Counted from the first letter of the stretch, positions 12,552 to 60,537 are shown. The stretch: 64,000 nt of DNA from Candidatus Rokuibacteriota bacterium (GCA_003221515.1 QHSI01000104.1:32568-96567); one strand, 5' to 3'. The notes: generated by a model from the sequence alone, not told the origin. Numbers and translations are program-made.

Positions 12552-12555
12552 AACG

Positions 12556-12625
12556 GAGCCGGCTCGCGCCTACCTCAGGCCACCCTCGATCCGAGCCGGC
12601 CTCACGGGCCCCGCTACAATAATCA
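12556..12625 (+). repeat. Copy A of dispersed ~65-bp repeat core (GGAGCCGGCTCGC..CTCAGGCCACCCTCG..CCGGCCTCACGG..CCCCGCTACAA) immediately 5' of permease-2 start
   Basis: Near-identical core also at 19905-19975, 25115-25190, 55651-55720 (reverse) and, partly duplicated, inside uvrA at 58385-58485. Confidence 0.6.
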
Positions 12626-18523: not shown

Positions 18524-19867
18524 TCAGGCCGGGTTGGGCTGGGTCAGGCGGGTGCGGTGCACCTGGGCCTGAACGTCGCGCACGCGATCGCCGTCGAGCT
18601 CGATCTCCAGCTCGTGGTGCTCGACGTCCCAGCTCTGCACCGTCGCCAGCCATCCGAACTGCCGGCGCCGGTGGGGGACCGTGCGGCGCCCGCGATAGAC
18701 CAGCGTTCGCCGACCGGGCGCGTTGAGCCGCTCGCGCTCCTCCGGATCGGGTCCACAGATCTTCAAGATCTCGTCGTACGTCGTCTCGCCCGGGGCGATC
18801 CGGGTCAGCGTCTCGCGCGGGACGATCGTGCCGACATGCTGCTCGGCGCCGGCGCCGCTGCGCGGCCCGAAGCGGATGCGTCCCTGGAGCCGCGCGCCGA
18901 GCCGCCTGGCGAGGGTGGCGACGAGGGGGCCAGCGACGTTGCCGAGGACGAAGAACAACGTCGCGAAGAGCACCGGCGCCCACGACTGCCAGCCGGAGAA
19001 GTAGCCGTACTGCACGGTCAACACTTGAGGGCGGAGACCCTCCGACGGATCGATGTAGGTCGAGACGATCTCGGTCCCCCGGCGCGACTCGCTCGTGCGC
19101 CGTTGGCTCGAGCCCGGAAAGACTTCGTGGATCTTGAGGTGGTCGGAGTCCGCGAACGTGATGGTGAGTGTCGATGGATCGTCGGAGAGGTGGACCACCC
19201 GATCGCGATACGCGAGGTACATGGGGAACGTGGCGCGCGTGCGCACGTCGTTGAAGCTCAGCGTGACCAGGTGACGCTCGCCCCAGAGGAAGTTCTCCAG
19301 CCAGGTGGCCTGCTTCGGCCGCCTGAGCCCGGTGAGACGCATCCTGAGGTCGATCAAGAACGAGCGGTCGACGAGCCGCGGCGTCCACGGGATCCGGATC
19401 CAGGTGGCCGGCGTGGGCAGGCCGAGCGGCCCCGCCTCTCGAGTGTAGGTGACGAACGGCGCGCCGCCAGGGAGCGGCTCCGGCTTCGCGCGCTGAGGGC
19501 CGGAATACACGGCGCGGGCGGACAGCGGCAGGCGGCCCTCGCGGGCGACCTGGAACCCACGTTCCTCCACGGTCCGGCGCAGTGCCGGGTCCGGTTCTCC
19601 CGCGACCATCTCGCCGTCCACCGCGCCCGGCCACAGGAGATAGAGATCTTGCTCGAGCGCAGCGGCGCCGACGTTCGGCGGCACCACGAGACTCCAGAGC
19701 AGGCTGACTTCGACCGGACCACCGGCCGGCACCACGTTCGCGCGGATCGACAGCGGACCGATCGTGAACTCCGGCTTCGGCTTGGACGCGAGAAAGATCT
19801 GAGCGTGCGCCGGCGCCGCGACCAGCGCCAGCAGCACGGCGACGAGCAAGACGAGCAAACGGCGGGT
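18524..19867 (-). CDS. Hypothetical membrane-anchored protein, tandem paralog of 17186-18511; start uncertain (no in-frame ATG before the signal peptide; CTG 19867 or TTG 19849 candidates)
   Basis: Highly similar along its length to the neighbour ('QIFLASKPKPEFTIGPLSIRANV'); the 5' end of the ORF reads through a 21-bp tandem repeat and repeat core B. Confidence 0.55.
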   Translation of the reverse strand, partial: TRRLLVLLVAVLLALVAAPAHAQIFLASKPKPEFTIGPLSIRANVVPAGGPVEVSLLWSLVVPPNVGAAALEQDLYLLWPGAVDGEMVAGEPDPALRRTVEERGFQVAREGRLPLSARAVYSGPQRAKPEPLPGGAPFVTYTREAGPLGLPTPATWIRIPWTPRLVDRSFLIDLRMRLTGLRRPKQATWLENFLWGERHLVTLSFNDVRTRATFPMYLAYRDRVVHLSDDPSTLTITFADSDHLKIHEVFPGSSQRRTSESRRGTEIVSTYIDPSEGLRPQVLTVQYGYFSGWQSWAPVLFATLFFVLGNVAGPLVATLARRLGARLQGRIRFGPRSGAGAEQHVGTIVPRETLTRIAPGETTYDEILKICGPDPEERERLNAPGRRTLVYRGRRTVPHRRRQFGWLATVQSWDVEHHELEIELDGDRVRDVQAQVHRTRLTQPNPA

Positions 19868-19902
19868 TGTCCGCAGACCGGCGCGGGTTGTCCGCAGACC
19901 GG
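19862..19902 (+). repeat. 2 x ~21-bp tandem repeat (GCGGGTTGTCCGCAGACCGG) abutting repeat core B
   Basis: Direct tandem duplication seen in sequence. Confidence 0.7.
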
Positions 19903-19904
19903 TG

Positions 19905-19975
19905 CCCCGAGCATCTATCTCAGGCCACCCTCGGTTCAAACCGGCCTCACGGTCCCCGTTACAACATTCCCGCGA
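19905..19975 (+). repeat. Copy B of dispersed ~65-bp repeat core
   Basis: CCCCGAGCATCTATCTCAGGCCACCCTCGGTTCAAACCGGCCTCACGGTCCCCGTTACAACA; between the SBP stop (19982) and the paralog gene 5' end. Confidence 0.6.
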
Positions 19976-19981
19976 CAATAA

Positions 19982-20959
19982 CTACAGCTTCACCGGGGTG
20001 AAGTCACGCGTGTAGTGCTCGTCGAGCGCGAGCTTTTTCTTGATGAGCCCGTGCTCGATGAGCGCGTCCTGCATCGCGGCGAGCGCGTCCACGTTGATGC
20101 GCCCGTCGACGGGCAGCAGCGGGCCGGAGATCTTGTGGGCGCCGAGCACCGCCTCGGCGCTCCAGCCGAGCTTCTTGCCGACCACCTCGGCGATCTCGCC
20201 CGGCTTGTCGCGCATGATCTTGATCGCGCGGAACAGCGCGCGCTGGCTCTTCTGGATCGTGTCGGCCTGCTTCTTGATGGCGTCCTCGGACGCGTACTGG
20301 ATCTGGCTGATCCACTTGGGCGTCACGGCGTCCAGGCGCAAGAGCACTTTGGACTTACCCTGGAGCTCGGTGACCGCGCCGCCGTCGCCCCAGACGTAGG
20401 CGGCGATCTCCTTGCGAGCCATGGCGGCGAGCTGAGCGTCGAGGCCGCCGAGCCCCACGACCTGCACGTCCTTGTCGGGATCCCACCCTTCCTTCTTCGC
20501 GAGCATGCGGGCGAAGACCCACGTCGTGGCGCCGGCCCGGGTGACGCCGATCGCCTTGCCCTTGAGGTCGGCGATCTTCTGCACGTCGGCCGCGACGTTG
20601 AGCGTGAAGTGGTTCCCCTCGGTGTGGGTGGCGATCATCTTCATCGGCGAGCCGGCCTCGCGGAAGACGAGGATGTCGGTGCTGCCGGTGATCCCAACGA
20701 GGCACTCGCCCGCCATCACCGCCTTGAGCAGATCGGGACCGCCGCGGAACGGCACGAACTCGGCGGCGAGCCCCTCGCTCTTGAAGAAGCCGCGCTCGAG
20801 CGCGACGATCACCGGCCCGGCCATCGAATAGTCGCCCAGCACCGCGGTGCCGATCTTGACCGACGTCTGCGCACGGGCGGCGCGCGCGAGTGCGGGCACG
20901 GTGCCCGCCGCGGCGGCGGCGGCCAGGAATCGACGCCGTGAGATCACGAGCATGAACAC
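19982..20959 (-). CDS. ABC transporter substrate-binding protein, NMT1/SsuA/TauA-like (NitT/TauT family), Tat signal
   Basis: 325 aa; 'SRRRFLAAAAAAGTVPALARA' twin-arginine signal; likely the missing SBP partner of the 11020-13353 transporter. Confidence 0.75.
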   Translation of the reverse strand: MFMLVISRRRFLAAAAAAGTVPALARAARAQTSVKIGTAVLGDYSMAGPVIVALERGFFKSEGLAAEFVPFRGGPDLLKAVMAGECLVGITGSTDILVFREAGSPMKMIATHTEGNHFTLNVAADVQKIADLKGKAIGVTRAGATTWVFARMLAKKEGWDPDKDVQVVGLGGLDAQLAAMARKEIAAYVWGDGGAVTELQGKSKVLLRLDAVTPKWISQIQYASEDAIKKQADTIQKSQRALFRAIKIMRDKPGEIAEVVGKKLGWSAEAVLGAHKISGPLLPVDGRINVDALAAMQDALIEHGLIKKKLALDEHYTRDFTPVKL

Positions 20960-22585: not shown

Positions 22586-23282
<697 letters not shown>

Positions 23283-23340
23283 TGCCGCCGTACGCGGCCG
23301 CCCTCGAGCGCAGCCGGCGATCGCCAAAGGAGCAGAGCGC

Positions 23341-24555
23341 ATGACCATCGCTCGCATCGCCGCCGCATTCATCGTCGTCTTGAGCCTGGCCGTCGGCCCG
23401 GCGCACGCCCAGATCTCCGATGGCGTCGTCAAGATCGGCGTCCTCAACGATCAGTCGAGCCTCTACGCCGACCTGGCCGGCCAGGGCTCGGTGGTCGCGG
23501 CACGCATGGCCGTCGAGGATTTCGGCGCCGCCGCCAAAGGGCTGAAAGTCGAGATCGTGTTCGCCGACCATCAGAACAAGGCCGATGTCGGCTCGCAGAT
23601 CGCGCGCCAGTGGTACGACGCCGAGAAGGTCGATCTCATCCTCGACGTACCGAACTCGGGCGTGGCGCTGGCCGTCAATCAGATCACCCGCGACAAGGGC
23701 AAGGCGTTCATCGTTTCCTCCGCGGCGTCCTCGGATCTCACCGGCAAGGCGTGCTCGCCCAACACCGTCCACTGGACGTACGACACGTGGGCGCTCGCCA
23801 ACGGCACCGGTAACGCGGTCGTGAAGACCGGCGGCGACACGTGGTTCTTCATCACCGCCGACTACGCGTTCGGCCACGCCCTCGAGCGCGACGTCGAGGC
23901 GGTGGTGCTGAAGAACGGCGGCAAGGTGCTGGGCAAGGTGCGCCACCCGCTCAACACGCAGGACTTCTCGTCGTTCCTCCTCCAGGCCCAGGCTTCGAAG
24001 GCCAAGGTCATCGGGCTGGCCAACGCCGGCGGCGACACGACCAACGCGATCAAGCAGGGCGCCGAGTTCGGCATCGCGAAGGGCGGGCAGATCTTCGCGG
24101 GCCTGCTGGTGTTCCTCACCGACGTGCACGCGCTCGGCCTCGAGAAGGCCCAGGGGCTCACGTTCACCGAGACCTTCTACTGGGACATGAACGAGAAGAC
24201 GCGCGCGTTCGCCAAGCGGTTCGCCGAGCGCAACCGGCAGATCCATCCGACGATGATCCACGCGGGCGCCTACGCGGGCACGCTGCACTACCTGAAGGCC
24301 GTCGAGGCGCTCAAGAGCGACGACGGCGCCAAGGTCATCGCCAAGATGAAAGAGATGCCGACGGACGACCCGCTCTTCGGCAAGGGGACGATTCGTGTCG
24401 ACGGCCGCAAGATTCATCCGGCGTATCTCGTCGAGGTCAAGAAGCCCTCCGAGTCCAAGTACCCGTGGGACTACTACAAGATCCGCGCAACTATCCCCGC
24501 TGAGCAGGCGTTCCGGCCTCTGGATCAGGGGGGCTGTGAGCTCGTGAAGAAGTAG
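23341..24555 (+). CDS. Leu/Ile/Val-binding-protein-family ABC substrate-binding protein (type I periplasmic binding fold)
   Basis: 404 aa; signal 'MTIARIAAAFIVVLSLAVGPAHAQ'; 'VKIGVLNDQSSLYADLAG' LivK/LivJ-like; RBS AAAGGAG. Confidence 0.85.
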   Translation: MTIARIAAAFIVVLSLAVGPAHAQISDGVVKIGVLNDQSSLYADLAGQGSVVAARMAVEDFGAAAKGLKVEIVFADHQNKADVGSQIARQWYDAEKVDLILDVPNSGVALAVNQITRDKGKAFIVSSAASSDLTGKACSPNTVHWTYDTWALANGTGNAVVKTGGDTWFFITADYAFGHALERDVEAVVLKNGGKVLGKVRHPLNTQDFSSFLLQAQASKAKVIGLANAGGDTTNAIKQGAEFGIAKGGQIFAGLLVFLTDVHALGLEKAQGLTFTETFYWDMNEKTRAFAKRFAERNRQIHPTMIHAGAYAGTLHYLKAVEALKSDDGAKVIAKMKEMPTDDPLFGKGTIRVDGRKIHPAYLVEVKKPSESKYPWDYYKIRATIPAEQAFRPLDQGGCELVKK

Positions 24556-24565
24556 GCGCGTTGCG

Positions 24566-24725
24566 GCGGGCCCGGGGGCGGGGGTGCGAGAGGGGTGCGG
24601 CGACCACGAGGCACGCGAGCGCATTGCCCGGTGCGGCTGGGCTCCATCTGGGTGCGGCTCGCACGACGCTCGCTTGGAGGGAACGGGTCGGCGCACCCCT
24701 CTCCCACCCCCACCCCCGGGCCCTC
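24566..24725. mobile_element. MITE-like element family 1, copy 1 (~160 bp, ~29-bp terminal inverted repeats CCCGGGGGCGGGGGTGCGAGAGGGGTGCG / CGCACCCCTCTCCCACCCCCACCCCCGGG)
   Basis: Starts 11 nt after livK-like stop; internal ~90 bp conserved with copies at 45134-45295 and 45426-45594. Confidence 0.5.
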
Positions 24726-24920
24726 ACACAGCGACGCTTCGTCTACGTATTGCCGCACCTGATCCAACCCCGGCTCCGGCTGCATCGGCGCGTGAAATCA
24801 CTGCGCACCGTGCACGAGTCGTCGGACCTACGCGGCATTCGCATCCTTCGCAACGCACGTTTGGGCGCGTCGACGCCATGCCGCTCCCCGCACCGGGGAT
24901 GAACGGGCGGATCGGAGCCA

Positions 24921-25114
24921 CGGCGCGTCGAGCGCGCGGGTTGTGCGGGCGGGTCGGCGCCGGCGCGCGATCGCCGCGTGGGTTGGCCGGGCGGGTCGGC
25001 GCCGGCGCGCAATCGCCGCGTGGGATGGCCGGGCGGGTCGGCGCCGGCGCGCAATCGCCGCGTGGGATGGCCGGGCGGGTCGGCGCCGGCTGGCAATCGG
25101 CGCGCGGGTTGTAC
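24921..25114 (+). repeat. Minisatellite: ~4.6 tandem copies of a 42-bp unit (GGGCGGGTCGGCGCCGGCGCGCAATCGCCGCGTGGGATGGCC) fused to repeat core C
   Basis: Units at 24947, 24989, 25031, 25073 (42 nt each, few substitutions), partial unit before; contiguous, no unique spacers. Confidence 0.8.
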
Positions 25115-25190
25115 GGGCGTGTCGGAGCCGGCTCGCATCTACAGCAGGCCACCCTCGGCATGAGCCGTTCTCAAGCTCCTATACAATGAC
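25115..25190 (+). repeat. Copy C of dispersed ~65-bp repeat core, ending at/overlapping the livH start codon
   Basis: GGGCGTGTCGGAGCCGGCTCGCATCTACAGCAGGCCACCCTCGGCATGAGCCGTTCTCAAGCTCCTATACAATG. Confidence 0.6.
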
Positions 25191-31311: not shown

Positions 31312-32242
31312 CCTCCTCTACCTGGTGGCCGTCGCGCCCTTCACGGATATGGCCGGCTCGCCCGCCTTCCTGGTGGAGGTGCTGCTGGGCGGCGTCTTCG
31401 CCGGGTTGATGTACTCCCTGGTCGCGCTCGGCTTCGTGCTGATCTTCAAGGCCTCGGGCGTGTTCAACTTCGCCCAGGGCGTGATGGTGCTGTTCGCGGC
31501 CCTCACGCTCGTCGGGCTGCTCGAGCGGGGCGTGCCGGTGGTCGTGGCCCTCGCCCTGACCACCGCCGTCATGGTGGCGTTGGCGTTCGCGATCGAGCGG
31601 CTGGTGCTCCGGCCGCTCGTCAACCAGGAGCACATCATCCTGTTCATGGCGACGATCGGGTTGAACTTCTTCCTCGAGGGCTTCGGCGAGATGGTGTGGG
31701 GCGCCAACGTCAAGCGGCTCGACATCGGGATTCCGGACCGATCGTTCATCGTGCGGGGCGTCCAGATCAACCAGCTCGAGCTGACGGCGGCGCTGACGGC
31801 CGCCGTCCTCGTCACGGTGCTGGCGCTGTTCTTCCAGAAGACGCGGATCGGCCGAGCCTTACGCGCGGTGGCCGACGACCACGAGGCCGCGCTCTCCATC
31901 GGCATCCCGCTCAAGACGATCTGGGTGGTCGTGTGGTCGGTGGCGGGCGTCGTCGCGATCGTCGCCGGCGTGATGTGGGGCGCCAAGAGCGGCGTGCAGT
32001 TCAGCCTCTCGCTCATCGCGCTCAAGGCGCTGCCGGTGCTCATCCTCGGCGGGTTCGAGTCGGTGCCGGGCGCCATCGTCGGGGGCCTGATCATCGGCGT
32101 CGGCGAGAAGGTCGGCGAAGTCTACTGGGGCCCGCTCGTCGGCGGCGCCATCGAGAACTGGTTCGCGTACGTCCTCGCCCTGGCCTTCCTGCTGGCGAGG
32201 CCGCAAGGCCTCTTCGGCGAGAAGATCATCGAGCGCGTGTGA
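31304..32242 (+). CDS. LivH-type permease (cassette 1)
   Basis: 312 aa, multi-TM, 'MYSLVALGFVLIFKASGVFNFAQG'. Confidence 0.85.
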   Translation: MTDLLYLVAVAPFTDMAGSPAFLVEVLLGGVFAGLMYSLVALGFVLIFKASGVFNFAQGVMVLFAALTLVGLLERGVPVVVALALTTAVMVALAFAIERLVLRPLVNQEHIILFMATIGLNFFLEGFGEMVWGANVKRLDIGIPDRSFIVRGVQINQLELTAALTAAVLVTVLALFFQKTRIGRALRAVADDHEAALSIGIPLKTIWVVVWSVAGVVAIVAGVMWGAKSGVQFSLSLIALKALPVLILGGFESVPGAIVGGLIIGVGEKVGEVYWGPLVGGAIENWFAYVLALAFLLARPQGLFGEKIIERV

Positions 32243-32255
32243 CGGGCGTCGCACC

Positions 32256-33332
32256 GTGATCTATCGAGAGGCCGGTCAGTTCAAGACGAGCTACGCGAGC
32301 GACCAGGCCATCTTCCCGATCGCGCAAGATCGCGCCGTGGTGTTGCTGGCGCTCGCCGCGGCGTTCGTCGGGCCGCCGCTGCTGGCCAGCGAGTACTGGC
32401 TCCAGGCGATTCTCATTCCGCTCCTGATCTATTCGCTGGCCGCGATCGGCTTGAACCTCCTCACCGGCTACGCCGGGCAGCTCTCGCTCGGTACGGGCGG
32501 GTTCATGGCCGTCGGGGCCTACGCCGCGTTCAAGCTCACCACGGCGTTCCCTCAGGTCAGCATCGTTCTCGTCTTCCTGCTCTCGGGGCTCGTCGCGGCC
32601 GGCGTCGGGCTCGTCTTCGGCATCCCCTCGCTCCGTATCAAGGGCTTCTACCTCGCCGTGGCGACCCTCGCGTCGCAGTTCTTCCTCGTCTGGCTTTTCA
32701 ACAAGGTCGCGTGGTTCTCCAACTACGCCTCGTCCGGCACCATCACCGCCCCCGACCGCGCCGTGCTCGGCGTGACGGTCACCGGCCCCAGCGCCACCGC
32801 CTCCGCGCGCTACCTGACCGCGCTGGCGCTCGTCACCGTCTTCGCGCTGGTCGCGAAGAACCTGGTGCGCGGACGCGTCGGCCGGTCGTGGATGGCGATC
32901 CGCGACCGCGACATCGCCGCCGAGATCATCGGCGTGCGGCCGTTGCGGACGAAGCTGCTGGCCTTCGGGATCAGCTCGTTCTATTGCGGCGTGGCCGGCG
33001 CCGAGCTGGTGTTCCTCTACCTCGGCAGCGCCGAGACGCAGGCGTTCGACATCGGCCTCTCGTTCCTCATCCTGTTCATGGTGATCATCGGCGGGCGGGG
33101 CAGCATCCTGGGCTCCGTCCTCGGGGCGGTGTTCATCGTGCTGGTCCCGATCTTCCTGACGAACGCGCCGCACGCGCTCGGGCTGAGGCTGCCGGTCGCG
33201 CTCCAGAAGCAGATCGAGCTGATGGTCTTCGGCGGGCTCATCGTCTTCTTCCTGATCGTCGAGCCCCGCGGCCTCGCCCGGCTCTGGCAGATCACGAAGG
33301 AAAAGCTGCGACTCTGGCCCTTCCCCCACTAA
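32256..33332 (+). CDS. LivM-type permease (cassette 1)
   Basis: 358 aa; 'LTGYAGQLSLGTGGFMAVGAYAAF'. Confidence 0.85.
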   Translation: MIYREAGQFKTSYASDQAIFPIAQDRAVVLLALAAAFVGPPLLASEYWLQAILIPLLIYSLAAIGLNLLTGYAGQLSLGTGGFMAVGAYAAFKLTTAFPQVSIVLVFLLSGLVAAGVGLVFGIPSLRIKGFYLAVATLASQFFLVWLFNKVAWFSNYASSGTITAPDRAVLGVTVTGPSATASARYLTALALVTVFALVAKNLVRGRVGRSWMAIRDRDIAAEIIGVRPLRTKLLAFGISSFYCGVAGAELVFLYLGSAETQAFDIGLSFLILFMVIIGGRGSILGSVLGAVFIVLVPIFLTNAPHALGLRLPVALQKQIELMVFGGLIVFFLIVEPRGLARLWQITKEKLRLWPFPH

Positions 33333-38198: not shown

Positions 38199-39087
38199 CG
38201 ACCTGAGCTTCTTCTTCCTCCTGATGTCGAACGGCCTCCTGATCGGCCTGATGTACTCGCTGATCGCGCTGGGGTTCGTGCTGGTCTACAAGGCGACCGA
38301 CGCCATCAACTTCGCCCAGGGCGAGTTCGTGATGATCGCGGGCTTCGTGACGGCGGGGGCCCTCATGGTGTGGGGGGCGCCGCTCTGGGTCGCCGTCGCG
38401 CTGGCGCTGGTGAGCCTGGTCGCCTTCGGCTTCGTCCTCGAGCGCGTGATGCTGCGACGACTCATCGGGCGACCCGTGATCGCCGTGGTCATGGCGACCA
38501 TCGGGCTGGCGGCGATCCTGCGCGGCGTCGGGCCGTTCGTCATCTTCTCCGGGACCAAGCCGCTGCCGCTGCCCATTCGCGACGAGCCGTTCATGCTGGG
38601 GCCGATCTTCATCCCGCCCATCCAGCTGCTCGGGGCCGGGGTGAGCCTGGCCTTCCTGGCCGGCTTCGGCTGGTTCTTCCTGAAGTCTCGCAAGGGCATC
38701 GCCATGCGGGCGGTGGCCGACAACCAGCAAGTCGCCATGGCGATGGGCATCGACGTCGAGCGCTACTTCGGCGTGGCGTGGGCGATGACCGGCGTCGTGT
38801 CGGCCCTGGGCGGGATCCTGTGGGGTAACCTGCTCGGCGTCGACGTGAACCTGGCCCTCGTCGGCTTCAAGGTGTTTCCCGTCGTGATCCTGGGCGGGCT
38901 GGACTCGATTCCGGGCGCGATCATCGGCGGCCTCATCGTCGGCGTCGTCGAGAACATCGCGGCCGGCTACGTCGATCCCTACGTCGGCGGCGGCACCAAA
39001 GACTTCGCCCCCTACGTCCTGATGATTCTCGCCCTCATGATTCGCCCATATGGAATCTTCGGGAAGCGAATCATTGAGCGGGTCTAG
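38191..39087 (+). CDS. LivH-type permease (cassette 2)
   Basis: 298 aa. Confidence 0.85.
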   Translation: MSDDLSFFFLLMSNGLLIGLMYSLIALGFVLVYKATDAINFAQGEFVMIAGFVTAGALMVWGAPLWVAVALALVSLVAFGFVLERVMLRRLIGRPVIAVVMATIGLAAILRGVGPFVIFSGTKPLPLPIRDEPFMLGPIFIPPIQLLGAGVSLAFLAGFGWFFLKSRKGIAMRAVADNQQVAMAMGIDVERYFGVAWAMTGVVSALGGILWGNLLGVDVNLALVGFKVFPVVILGGLDSIPGAIIGGLIVGVVENIAAGYVDPYVGGGTKDFAPYVLMILALMIRPYGIFGKRIIERV

Positions 39088-39234
39088 GGCGACGATAACG
39101 GCGCATCTGCTTCGTTGCCTCGTCGCTGCCTCCCTGCGGCGTATGCGGCATACGCCTCAGTCGTCAGCTCCTCGGCGCCTCGCATCTGCACCGTTCTCGT
39201 CGCCCTGCCCGGCGCTCTTCAGAAAGGGGGCGCG

Positions 39235-41581: not shown

Positions 41582-41604
41582 CCCGCGCGGGGCCGGCGCC
41601 CGCT

Positions 41605-41749
41605 GACGGGGCCGGCGCCGTGGGGGTGGGACGGACCTGGAAATCCGCGAGCCGCTGTGCTCGACGACATTGTCGATCGCGGCAGCCTTCGGCAACGGTG
41701 CCTACACGGATTTCCAGGACCGTCCCACCCCCACGGCGCCGGCCCCGTC
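41605..41749. mobile_element. 145-bp element with 43-bp near-perfect inverted-repeat arms (GACGGGGCCGGCGCCGTGGGGGTGGGACGGACCTGGAAATCCG ... CGGATTTCCAGGACCGTCCCACCCCCACGGCGCCGGCCCCGTC) around a 59-nt loop; MITE-like or large RNA hairpin between SBP and livF of cassette 2
   Basis: Arms 41605-41647 and 41707-41749 are reverse complements with a single mismatch. Confidence 0.5.
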
Positions 41750-41863
41750 CGTGGGAGGTCGGCGAGCCCGGCGGTTGCTCCTCGCAAGACCGTTACTGCT
41801 GGTCGTCGAAACGGGCGGCTCGTCGAACCGATGCAAGCGCTTCTCGAAGAGGTGGCGTAGGCA

Positions 41864-44287: not shown

Positions 44288-45154
44288 GTGAGCGCGCCTG
44301 ACTTCGTCGCCATCGGGCACGTCACCCTCGACCGCATCGGCGACGCCACGCGCCCGGGCGGCGCCGCGCTGTTCGCCGCCATCACCGCGTACCGGCTCGG
44401 GCTTTCGGTCGGGCTCCTCACGAGCTACGGCGACGACTTCCCGCTCGACCTGATCCCGTCGCAGATCGAGGTCGTCAGCGTCCCGGCCGCGGACACGACG
44501 CGCTTCGAGCACCGGCAGGATCCCCAGGGGCGCGTGTCGCACGTCCGTGCCGCAGCCGGTCCGCTCGCGAAGGCCGACGTGCCGGACGACTGGCGCGGAG
44601 CCGCGCTGACGCTGCTGGCCCCGGTCCTCGACGAGGTCGAGCCTATGATCGCGACCCTCTTCACCGACGGCGCGGTCGGCGCCGCGGCGCAGGGATGGCT
44701 ACGGACCACGGCGCCCGACGGGCTCGTCGTCGGTCGGCCCTGGCAGACGCCGGAGCCCCTGTTGCATTCGGTGCAGGCCCTGTTCCTGAGCCGCGAGGAC
44801 ATCCGCGGGCAGGAGGCCGCCGTCGTCCAGTGGTTCCAGCGCATCCCGGTCGGCGTCCTGACCGCCGACCGCGACGGCGCGCTCCTGTTCGTCAACGGCG
44901 AGCGCTACGACGTTCGGCCCCGCCCGGCGCGCGAGATCGATCCGACCGGCGCCGGCGACGTCTTCGCGGCGACCTTCATGGTCCAATACCAGCGCGACGG
45001 CGACCCCTGGCTGGCCGCCGCCGCCGCCGCCTGCGCCGGCTCCCTCGCCGTCGAAGGCATAGGCTGGTCCTCGCTCGCCGACCGTCCCACCCTCGACGCC
45101 TTGCTCGCTTCCTACCAGCGCCACGAGGAAGCGCCCGGGGGTGGTGCGGGGTAG
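44288..45154 (+). CDS. PfkB/ribokinase-family carbohydrate kinase; last 7 codons and stop lie inside the MITE terminal repeat
   Basis: 288 aa; 'DPTGAGDVFAATFMV' PfkB signature 2. Confidence 0.7.
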   Translation: MSAPDFVAIGHVTLDRIGDATRPGGAALFAAITAYRLGLSVGLLTSYGDDFPLDLIPSQIEVVSVPAADTTRFEHRQDPQGRVSHVRAAAGPLAKADVPDDWRGAALTLLAPVLDEVEPMIATLFTDGAVGAAAQGWLRTTAPDGLVVGRPWQTPEPLLHSVQALFLSREDIRGQEAAVVQWFQRIPVGVLTADRDGALLFVNGERYDVRPRPAREIDPTGAGDVFAATFMVQYQRDGDPWLAAAAAACAGSLAVEGIGWSSLADRPTLDALLASYQRHEEAPGGGAG

Positions 45155-45295
45155 TGGGGGCGGGGTCGCGCGACCACGAGGCGCGCGTGCGCTGCCCCGG
45201 GCGGCTGGGCTCCATCCAGGTGCTCCACCTCCGACGCCGCGTGGAGGGAACGGGTCTCGTCGACCCCGCCCCCACTACCCCGCACCACCCCCGGG
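45134..45295. mobile_element. MITE-like element family 1, copy 2 (162 bp; perfect 35-bp terminal inverted repeats CCCGGGGGTGGTGCGGGGTAGTGGGGGCGGGGTCG)
   Basis: Arms 45134-45168 and 45261-45295 are exact reverse complements; interior matches copies 1 and 3. Confidence 0.55.
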
Positions 45296-45425
45296 CGCCG
45301 TTGCGGTGATTCAAGCGCGCGCGCATGACGACGGCCGCAGGCGCGCGCGTGACGGCGGTGCACGTGGGTGACTTGAGTGCTTTCATGCTCGCGCGTGACG
45401 GAGTGTCAACCGCGCGGGTGAACTG

Positions 45426-45594
45426 GTGGTGGGCGGGGACGGCGCGGGTGCGGTGGGGCTCGAAGGAACCCGTTCCCTCCATGCGGCGACGGGAGTGGAG
45501 TGCCCGGATGGAGCCCAGCCGCCTCGGAGCAGCGGACGCGTGCCGCGTGGTTCTCTCGAGCCCCACCGCACCCGCGCCGGCCTCGCCCACCGCC
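45426..45594. mobile_element. MITE-like element family 1, copy 3 (inverted orientation relative to copy 2; ~40-bp imperfect terminal inverted repeats)
   Basis: Interior is the reverse complement of copy-2 interior (GGCTGGGCTCCATCC..TGGAGGGAACGGGT) with ~85% identity. Confidence 0.5.
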
Positions 45595-45646
45595 AGCCTC
45601 GAGCGCGTTCTTGACACACCTCGGAAGCACGGCCTAGGCTGGCCTT

Positions 45647-55650: not shown

Positions 55651-55720
55651 CGCCTCCTGTTGTAGCGGGGTCCGTGAGGCCGGCTTGCACCGAGGGTGGC
55701 CTGAGATAGATGCGACCCGG
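55651..55720 (-). repeat. Copy D of dispersed ~65-bp repeat core (reverse orientation), immediately 5' of the LmbE-like gene
   Basis: Reverse complement reads CCGGGTCGCATCTATCTCAGGCCACCCTCGGTGCAAGCCGGCCTCACGGACCCCGCTACAACAGGAGG. Confidence 0.6.
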
Positions 55721-55924
55721 CTCCGCTCGCCCGGTCAACCCTTTGATGCGACCCGGCTCCGCTTGCCCGGTCAACCGTTCGATGCGATTCCGGCTCCGCT
55801 TGCCTGGTCAACCCTTTGGTGCGACCCGGCTCCGCTCGCCCGGTCAACCGTTCGATGCGATTCCGGCTCCGCACGCCCGCTCATCCCTTCGATGCTGGTC
55901 GAACCCGCTTAGATGCGTGGGTCC
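55711..55924 (-). repeat. Minisatellite: ~5.8 tandem copies of a 36/37-bp unit (TGCGACCCGGCTCCGCTCGCCCGGTCAACCCTTTGA) attached to repeat core D
   Basis: Units start 55711, 55747, 55783, 55820, 55856, partial 55893; same position relative to the core as the 42-bp array at copy C. Confidence 0.8.

Positions 55925-57665: not shown

Positions 57666-60537
<2,872 letters not shown>

Follow-up and report, generated by a model that had tools for sequence, protein, structure and literature searches.

The 64,000-nucleotide stretch of Candidatus Rokuibacteriota bacterium DNA analyzed here (GCA_003221515.1, QHSI01000104.1:32568-96567; hereafter the window) carries three copies of a hairpin-forming element in which a conserved core of about 90 nt lies between long inverted arms. 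These three units are members of a large, undescribed, lineage-specific repeat family of soil Rokubacteria, which are abundant, uncultured soil bacteria with large genomes. The arms are unrelated in sequence between copies and complementary within each copy, and the core has been found inverted in place between identical arms when genomes are compared. The preferred reading, held with as much doubt as confidence, is that the family represents a new lineage-specific REP/BIME-like interspersed extragenic palindrome that is co-transcribed at gene 3′ ends and whose arms recombine with each other.

A repeat family of soil Rokubacteria

The three units had been proposed in a sequence-only reading of the window, and all of them are present where that reading placed them, with boundaries off by no more than 3 nt. 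Copy 1 (24568-24723, plus strand) has arms at 24568-24605 and 24686-24723 (38 nt, 92% complementary) and a core at approximately 24606-24685. Copy 2 (45131-45298, plus strand) has arms at 45131-45168 and 45261-45298 and a core at 45169-45260; its arms, initially described as a perfect 35/35 match, are indeed perfect and extend further, to 38/38. Copy 3 (45423-45596, minus strand) has arms at 45423-45470 and 45549-45596 (48 nt, 90% complementary), with the core on the minus strand. Copy 3 had been described as an inverted copy of copy 2 at a distance of 130 bp. The opposite orientation and the correspondence of the cores hold, whereas the arms of the two copies are unrelated and the spacer between them (45299-45422) measures 124 nt.

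The interior of about 90 bp said to be shared by the units is conserved in all three. The interiors align, and the blocks GCGGCTGGGCTCCATC and TGGAGGGAACGGGT are invariant, with exactly three occurrences of each in the window versus 0.46-2.8 expected when mismatches are allowed. A profile hidden Markov model (HMM) of the core likewise returns exactly three matches in the window, corresponding to copies 1-3, with E values of 1e-23 to 1e-24. Copy 2 also bears out the expectation of a very stable hairpin, with a predicted fold of −144 kcal/mol and a z-score of −10.2 relative to dinucleotide shuffles. The window contains nine canonical G-quadruplex motifs, five of which fall in the G-rich arms of the three copies (24568-24595, 24703-24723 on the minus strand, 45137-45165, 45264-45292 on the minus strand, and 45431-45458).

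Further copies were recovered in two scans. The first, run on genome contigs with the gapped exact pattern GGCTGGGCTCCAT-N15-40-GGAGGGAAC, matches at least 112 genome-contig stretches. The second employs a pattern built from different blocks and matches at least 120 stretches of soil metagenomes. With the core HMM, 134 and 126 copies, at least 260 in all, are recovered from the genome and metagenome stretches. The earlier picture of a dispersed intergenic family is upheld; its units are non-coding, multicopy, and about 170 bp long, and its further copies reside in metagenome-assembled genomes (MAGs) of Rokubacteria/Methylomirabilota and in soil metagenomes. Among the genome matches listed, the hosts are essentially all Candidatus Rokubacteria/Methylomirabilota MAGs, and one long-read MAG harbors 19 family copies. 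The few records labeled Binatia have contigs that are syntenic with the window at 83-89% identity. All sources are MAGs and metagenomes, and none is a whole genome. A search of PLSDB plasmids and viral contigs gave no matches to the family. In the window, Rfam 15 gives 0 matches at gathering score and, at E values up to 10, only sub-threshold generic miRNA-hairpin matches. The literature searched on Rokubacteria repeats contained nothing relevant.

Elements are 148-258 bp long (median 170), with arms of 38-48 nt in the window copies. The core follows the order GACCACGCGGCACGCG, a first variable segment (V1, 16-17 nt), GGCTGGGCTCCATC, a second variable segment (V2, 26-27 nt), and nnnGGGAACGGGTC, with the near-invariant end GGGAACGGGTC. 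In the metagenome sample, which is less biased, CTCCATC follows GGCTGGG in 89 of 111 copies and GGGAACGGGTC remains near-invariant, while the GGA preceding it is variable. The length variants of 1 nt in V1 and V2 rule out a coding core. A median of 41 positions are paired between the two arms, with complementarity of about 94%; 13 copies have perfect arms of at least 30 bp. G makes up 56% of the 5′ arm and C 57% of the 3′ arm, an asymmetry that is unchanged by reverse complementation, and the canonical (G3+N1-7)x4 motif is found in about half of the arms. The only semi-conserved portion of the arms is the innermost GGGGTCG…CGACCCC. A conserved 3′ tail was considered as an additional part of the element and rejected, since the motif TTCGCGSATGGAAC is present in only 7 of 191 tails.

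Complementary arms and in-place inversion of the core

The arms diverge between copies while the core does not. Among paralogs within a MAG, cores are 0.82 identical and outer arms 0.53, versus 0.47 for shuffled arms. Among orthologs, the identity is 0.82 in the core (pattern-forced segments excluded), 0.58-0.62 in the outer arms, and 0.53 in the 60 nt downstream of the element, which is saturated relative to the unrelated-sequence baseline of 0.52. By these identities, the core appears to be under constraint at fixed sites while the arms drift near-neutrally.

Within each copy, complementarity is retained by paired changes. In 47 ortholog pairs (same flanking genes, different species), 1357 paired positions are unchanged, 159 are altered on both sides and still Watson-Crick, 31 have become wobble pairs, and 184 are one-sided breaks, some of which represent alignment slippage. 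For copy 1, a 45-pair stem compared across 7 orthologs exhibits double changes at 22 pairs and a one-sided change at only 1. In this comparison, 94% of cells are paired versus 45-49% when the partner is slid by 1-3 columns, and the observed values are reached by 0 of 500 shuffles. The same paired-change pattern is seen in the arms of copies 2 and 3 when the window is compared with the orthologous locus L074.

The kind of change is also informative. Stem mismatches comprise 95 A·C/C·A versus 75 G·T/T·G, such that wobble is not favored. In the copy 1 orthologs, paired changes most often exchange G:C for C:G, and hardly any G·U pairs occur. Selection acting on an RNA helix would be expected to let G·U pass but not A·C; the lack of a preference for G·U over A·C thus suggests that complementarity is kept at the DNA level.

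Such a pattern would be expected if one arm were copied onto the other, either by gene conversion between the inverted arms or by replication template switching, so that all mutation types would be corrected equally. Template switching between inverted-repeat arms is reported to homogenize and expand the arms and to invert the spacer (PMC8604942, PMC13100816, PMC8794818). The same arm-to-arm process would also invert the core now and then. Recombination or template switching between the arms may thus account for arm perfection, near-neutral drift, the missing wobble bias, and occasional core inversion. A different origin, in which the arms are copied from upstream coding sequence, is not supported; where an open reading frame (ORF) ends inside an arm, the ortholog shows that the original stop codon has been lost.

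Comparison of genomes reveals two or more loci at which the core is reversed in place while the arms on either side are identical. L069 and L121 have collinear flanks on both sides that are about 95% identical, their arms are identical, and the core is reverse-complemented; the inverted stretch comprises about 95 bp between GGGGTCG and CGACCCC. L076 and L072 provide a second aligned in-place inversion. A BLAST comparison of flanks indicates the same inversion for L069/L015 versus L085/L121/L061, for L064/L076 versus L072/L196, and for L003 versus L115. In L081, an antisense copy abuts the pfkB stop at the place where the window has copy 2 in sense. Orientation is constant in 7 of 7 copy 1 orthologs and in 7 of 7 L047-type pairs. 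Misassembly is an unlikely source of the inversions because the arms involved (31-48 bp) are shorter than the reads and than the k of 141 given in the contig labels.

Gene ends, orientation, and turnover

Family members reside immediately downstream of genes. The distance from stop codon to hairpin base has a median of 2.5 nt (interquartile range −5 to 11), and the upstream genes checked by Pfam are diverse, including FtsZ, sigma-70, binding proteins, permeases, and dehydrogenases. At 37 of 101 independent loci, the stop of a co-oriented gene abuts the 5′ base of the hairpin (sense only); at 11, only the stop of an opposite-strand gene abuts the 3′ base (antisense only); 8 have both, and the remaining 45 have neither or lie at a contig edge. 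The sense orientation accounts for 37 of the 48 decidable loci (77%; p = 2e-4 versus 0.5). Close pairs are convergent (tail-to-tail) in 18 of 18 cases, representing at least 6 independent loci, with none divergent and with arm-to-arm spacers of about 80-260 nt. The bias in orientation, the exclusively convergent arrangement of close pairs, and the conservation of the core at fixed sites suggest that the core matters in one orientation, either to the host or to the element.

Two loci from the same MAG (L033 and L035, JBBTPF; short contigs) share a near-identical element (arms 95%), the spacer, and the start of a convergent partner. Their upstream flanks differ. This combination suggests that an entire pair was duplicated recently; both contigs end inside the repeat.

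In the window, copy 1 begins 13 nt past the stop of a Peripla_BP_6 substrate-binding-protein gene (23233-24555) and lies upstream of a LivH-type permease gene; the copy 1 orthologs follow the same upstream gene in 6 other genomes. Copies 2 and 3 form a convergent, tail-to-tail pair that is also present in L074. A PfkB-family ORF (44288-45154) stops 22 nt within the 5′ arm of copy 2, that is, 7 codons into the G-rich arm. L074 has a TAA directly before the arm, and the window has GAA in its place. The spacer between copies 2 and 3 is weakly conserved relative to L074, from which it differs by a 26-nt indel, and no second copy of it was found. Just past copy 3, the sequence TTGACA-N18-TAGGCT (45611-45640) precedes the GTG of a cyclophilin-like gene by 7 nt and is kept in L074. 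It is likely a promoter, which would place the convergent pair between the end of one gene and the promoter of the next.

Comparison of orthologous intergenic sites shows that copies come and go without target-site duplication and that they can also persist across species. The window itself contains an empty site at 32226-32263 (insertion point 32244/5), where the TGA of a liv permease gene is separated from the next GTG by 19 nt (4 nt in L013). At this point, L080 harbors a family member with a 35-nt tail, amounting to about 220 bp of extra sequence. Other filled/empty pairs include L227/L211 with L090, L166 with L001, L124 with L173, and L169/L199 with L175, among others. The target-site duplications that a transposable element could be expected to leave are found neither at element boundaries nor at filled/empty junctions; a lone 7-nt repeat at L080 is positioned 9-15 nt outside the hairpin. 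Across 64 loci, there is no conserved terminal motif and no terminal information content. Inserts often extend 35-45 nt past the 3′ arm, with a tail that is not conserved family-wide. The search for a cognate transposase was equally negative, with no longer relative bearing a transposase or split core halves in the approximately 1.8 Mb of DNA examined. Insertion of the core into pre-existing terminator hairpins was rejected on the grounds that the empty sites have no hairpin.

At one gene end of the window, the place of the family is taken by an unrelated hairpin (39086-39206), which starts at the stop codon and has 25-nt arms (84% complementary) and a 71-nt loop. The same site is occupied by a convergent family pair in 7 other genomes. 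That two unrelated hairpins occupy the same gene end hints that a 3′ hairpin as such is favored there. A further long hairpin, which is G-first, is present at 41599-41755 (49-nt arms, 94% complementary; 59-nt loop) within the segment 41583-41864, and this segment of about 280 bp is absent from several orthologous genomes (L017, L047, L049, L059, and L108). The two hairpins were considered as sister families and rejected as such, each being single-copy in 0.9 Mb of related DNA.

The window, with a GC content of 69%, contains other repeats. One is an interspersed repeat of about 55-70 nt (GCATCTATCTCAGGCCACCCTCGGTTCAAACCGGCCTCACGG…) that is unrelated to the hairpin family. It is present, in both orientations, at 12554-12619, 19911-19966, 25123-25173, 55658-55725, and 58401-58446, and at least 8 further Rokubacteria loci carry it as well (L093, L090, L019, L039, L012, L104, L024, and L086). 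Its copy at 19911 lies within a segment (19844-19983) whose roughly 115 extra bp have no counterpart in the ortholog L022. A tandem array at 24896-25137, comprising about 5-6 copies of a 42-bp GC-rich unit, is located between copy 1 and the permease gene downstream of it; in orthologs such as L007, the corresponding place contains only about 50 bp. The majority of the long direct repeats in the window correspond to paralogous liv-type ABC-transporter genes (ATPase, permease, and binding-protein clusters) and not to mobile DNA.

Possible origins and functions of the family

According to the preferred reading, the element would be co-transcribed with the upstream gene, and its stem-loop would serve as a 3′-end structure acting as a U-tract-less terminator and/or a barrier to 3′-exonucleases. 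A 3′-end role would suit the copy located between the binding-protein and permease genes of an ABC-transporter operon. The position after the binding-protein gene of such operons is a classic REP/BIME site. The core may carry a strand-specific signal, probably the binding site of a protein acting on RNA or single-stranded DNA, and this signal could either mobilize the element or provide a host function.

The family resembles REP/BIME and REPIN sequences in being an abundant, non-coding extragenic palindrome found at gene 3′ ends and inside operons, with inverted doublets. It further shares with REPINs a hairpin kept by paired changes, long vertical persistence, and the lack of target-site duplication (PMC3116915). 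However, there are several differences. A REPIN is bounded by two invariant 16-mers that enclose a variable spacer (PMC3116915), while in the present family the center is conserved and the ends vary, which amounts to a reversal of the REPIN architecture. The units are also larger (about 170 bp with 40-bp arms), and inversion of the core is observed. In contrast to REP-RAYT systems, no RAYT is linked to the family, and the loci examined contain no 0.5-3-kb segment bracketed by copies.

Several points weigh against this assignment. Co-transcription and a terminator or stabilizer role are deduced from position. No U-tract terminators, canonical terminators, or sigma-70 promoters were found in or beside the units, and the sequence past the 3′ arm is not T-rich (T 0.18); the missing U-tract sets these hairpins apart from intrinsic terminators. 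The absence of a wobble bias argues against RNA-level selection on the stem, which the proposed RNA function should impose. The sense bias of 77% is compatible (p = 0.18) with the 70% expected if orientation follows replication and genes are co-oriented with replication, and the gene calls behind the counts come from a crude GC3-based heuristic caller spot-checked by Pfam. The ascertainment of copies by exact patterns inflates the apparent conservation of the core, a bias partially controlled by the use of different blocks in the second scan and by leaving the pattern-forced segments out of the ortholog identities. Concerted evolution between copies, rather than purifying selection, could be the cause of core likeness. 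Finally, neither a mobilizing gene nor an insertion mechanism was found among the loci examined.

The in-place inversions raise the question of programmed switching. In an inverton family, the arms or the inner GGGGTCG/CGACCCC would be the sites of a genome-wide invertase and the core a promoter or terminator, such that flips would switch neighboring genes at 100 or more loci. The layout of an approximately 40-bp inverted repeat, a 90-bp segment, and a second repeat is as expected, as are the clean in-situ inversions between closely related genomes, the position of GGGGTCG…CGACCCC as the most conserved part of the arms, and a core that is conserved, asymmetric, and orientation-biased relative to genes. 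As in known invertons, inverted repeats flank a short asymmetric segment and both orientations occur at one locus, although in this family they do so between genomes only. However, flipping must be rare or strongly biased, because both ortholog sets are stable (7/7 each) and all 18 pairs are convergent. The core contains no promoter-like or terminator-like motif. Site-specific inversion does not need long locus-specific arms, and perfect 40-bp repeats can recombine without a dedicated enzyme. In contrast to invertons, the arms differ at every locus, hundreds of copies share one core, orientation is mostly stable across species, and there is no promoter and no identified invertase, for which no systematic search was made. 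An inverton family is therefore considered unlikely.

Also improbable is a REPIN/REP-like or IS200/IS605-like non-autonomous element, in which a hairpin of single-stranded DNA would be moved by a single-copy HUH (Y1) transposase the core would be the recognition site of this enzyme, and the element would have no host function. Insertion without target-site duplication or conserved terminal repeats would follow from such a mechanism, and it would suit hairpin complementarity kept at the DNA level and the extragenic location at gene 3′ ends with doublets in inverted orientation. Long vertical inheritance would also agree with what is reported for REPIN-RAYT (bioRxiv 10.1101/2021.07.10.451892, PMC3116915). 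The reversed architecture stands against it, since the invariant ends of REPINs (PMC3116915) have their counterpart here in an invariant center. Moreover, purely selfish copies should decay at fixed sites, yet the cores are 0.82 identical beside saturated DNA. No RAYT-like gene flanked by copies is present in the loci examined, where no profile search was made.

The sequence-only reading had also offered a structured-RNA gene, and the case for it is now weak. In this scheme, a cis-acting structured RNA or small RNA would have its stem kept by selection on RNA folding and its apical domain would serve as a folded aptamer or as a protein-binding RNA. The extreme fold stability, the strong covariation of the stem, the sense bias at gene 3′ ends, and the conserved apical sequence are all in its favor, and in 56 of 70 copies the core folds more stably in the sense than in the antisense direction, by about 3 kcal/mol. 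Tests of the core, however, yield little structure. Its minimum free energy is no lower than that of shuffles (z = +0.4 sense, +0.8 antisense). No covarying or compensatory internal helix was found by RNAalifold on 117 copies, by a helix scan, or in the copy 1 orthologs. Mutual information, computed by length class and on 234 HMM-aligned copies, reveals covariation in the arms only, with the exception of one isolated CG/GC pair (model columns 48-75). When duplexes from the same copy are compared with swapped copies, complementarity is limited to the inner arms (−5.3 kcal/mol), with a marginal −0.27 kcal/mol for the end of V1 with V2. A candidate CUCC/GGAG helix was rejected: in copies recovered without the use of GGAG, this segment occurs in only about 30% whereas CUCC is retained, so that the helix is not kept in the less biased sample. 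An HDV-like ribozyme, a sigma-54 promoter, and an extracytoplasmic function (ECF) promoter were dropped by eye for want of a P1 partner and with spacings off by at least 2 nt. In addition, the stem has no enrichment of G·U over A·C and, in copy 1, 1 one-sided change versus 22 double changes. Rfam yields no match, no conserved sequence upstream could serve as a promoter, antisense copies make up about 23% of those placed, and cores invert. A structured RNA is thus a distinctly unlikely explanation.

The classical miniature inverted-repeat transposable element (MITE) originally proposed, an insertion sequence of the DDE-transposase type reduced by deletion and transposed by cut-and-paste via its terminal inverted repeats, would fit the small size, inverted repeats, high copy number, intergenic location, and presence/absence polymorphism, but it is largely refuted and very improbable given arms that are unrelated between copies, the lack of a conserved terminal motif, the absence of target-site duplications at more than 60 loci and at filled/empty junctions, and the failure to find a longer relative with split core halves in the loci examined.

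Other known palindromes resemble the family in part. ERIC/IRU and Correia elements are intergenic imperfect palindromes of 100-170 bp that are co-transcribed and can form long RNA hairpins. Element size, intergenic placement, and the palindromic hairpin are common to these and the present family. However, they have conserved terminal inverted repeats and, in the case of Correia elements, a TA duplication, neither of which is seen here. Integron attC sites are imperfect palindromes of variable sequence that directly follow a stop codon in fixed orientation and function as folded single-stranded DNA. Their conservation is confined to the outer R″/R′ boxes around a variable center, the reverse of the arrangement described here. 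The neighbors of the family are ordinary housekeeping and operon genes and not cassettes, and the GTTRRRY ends are missing.

Whether read as a REP/BIME-like palindrome or otherwise, the family occupies many gene ends in Rokubacteria and is represented neither in Rfam nor in the literature searched. Its hundreds of independently evolving inverted repeats constitute a data set for measuring arm homogenization, palindrome maintenance, and spacer inversion. There is a small chance that the elements are genome-wide programmed DNA switches, with each genome flipping a conserved, directional 90-bp cassette at 100 or more of its gene ends by means of a recombination system, either dedicated or general. 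In that event, flips would change termination, read-through, or antisense transcription of neighboring operons, and recombination would keep the locus-specific arms perfect. Should the core turn out to bind a protein or to act as a switching signal, the family would represent a new kind of 3′-end control element or a new mobilization system and would provide a ready strain-typing marker for the phylum.

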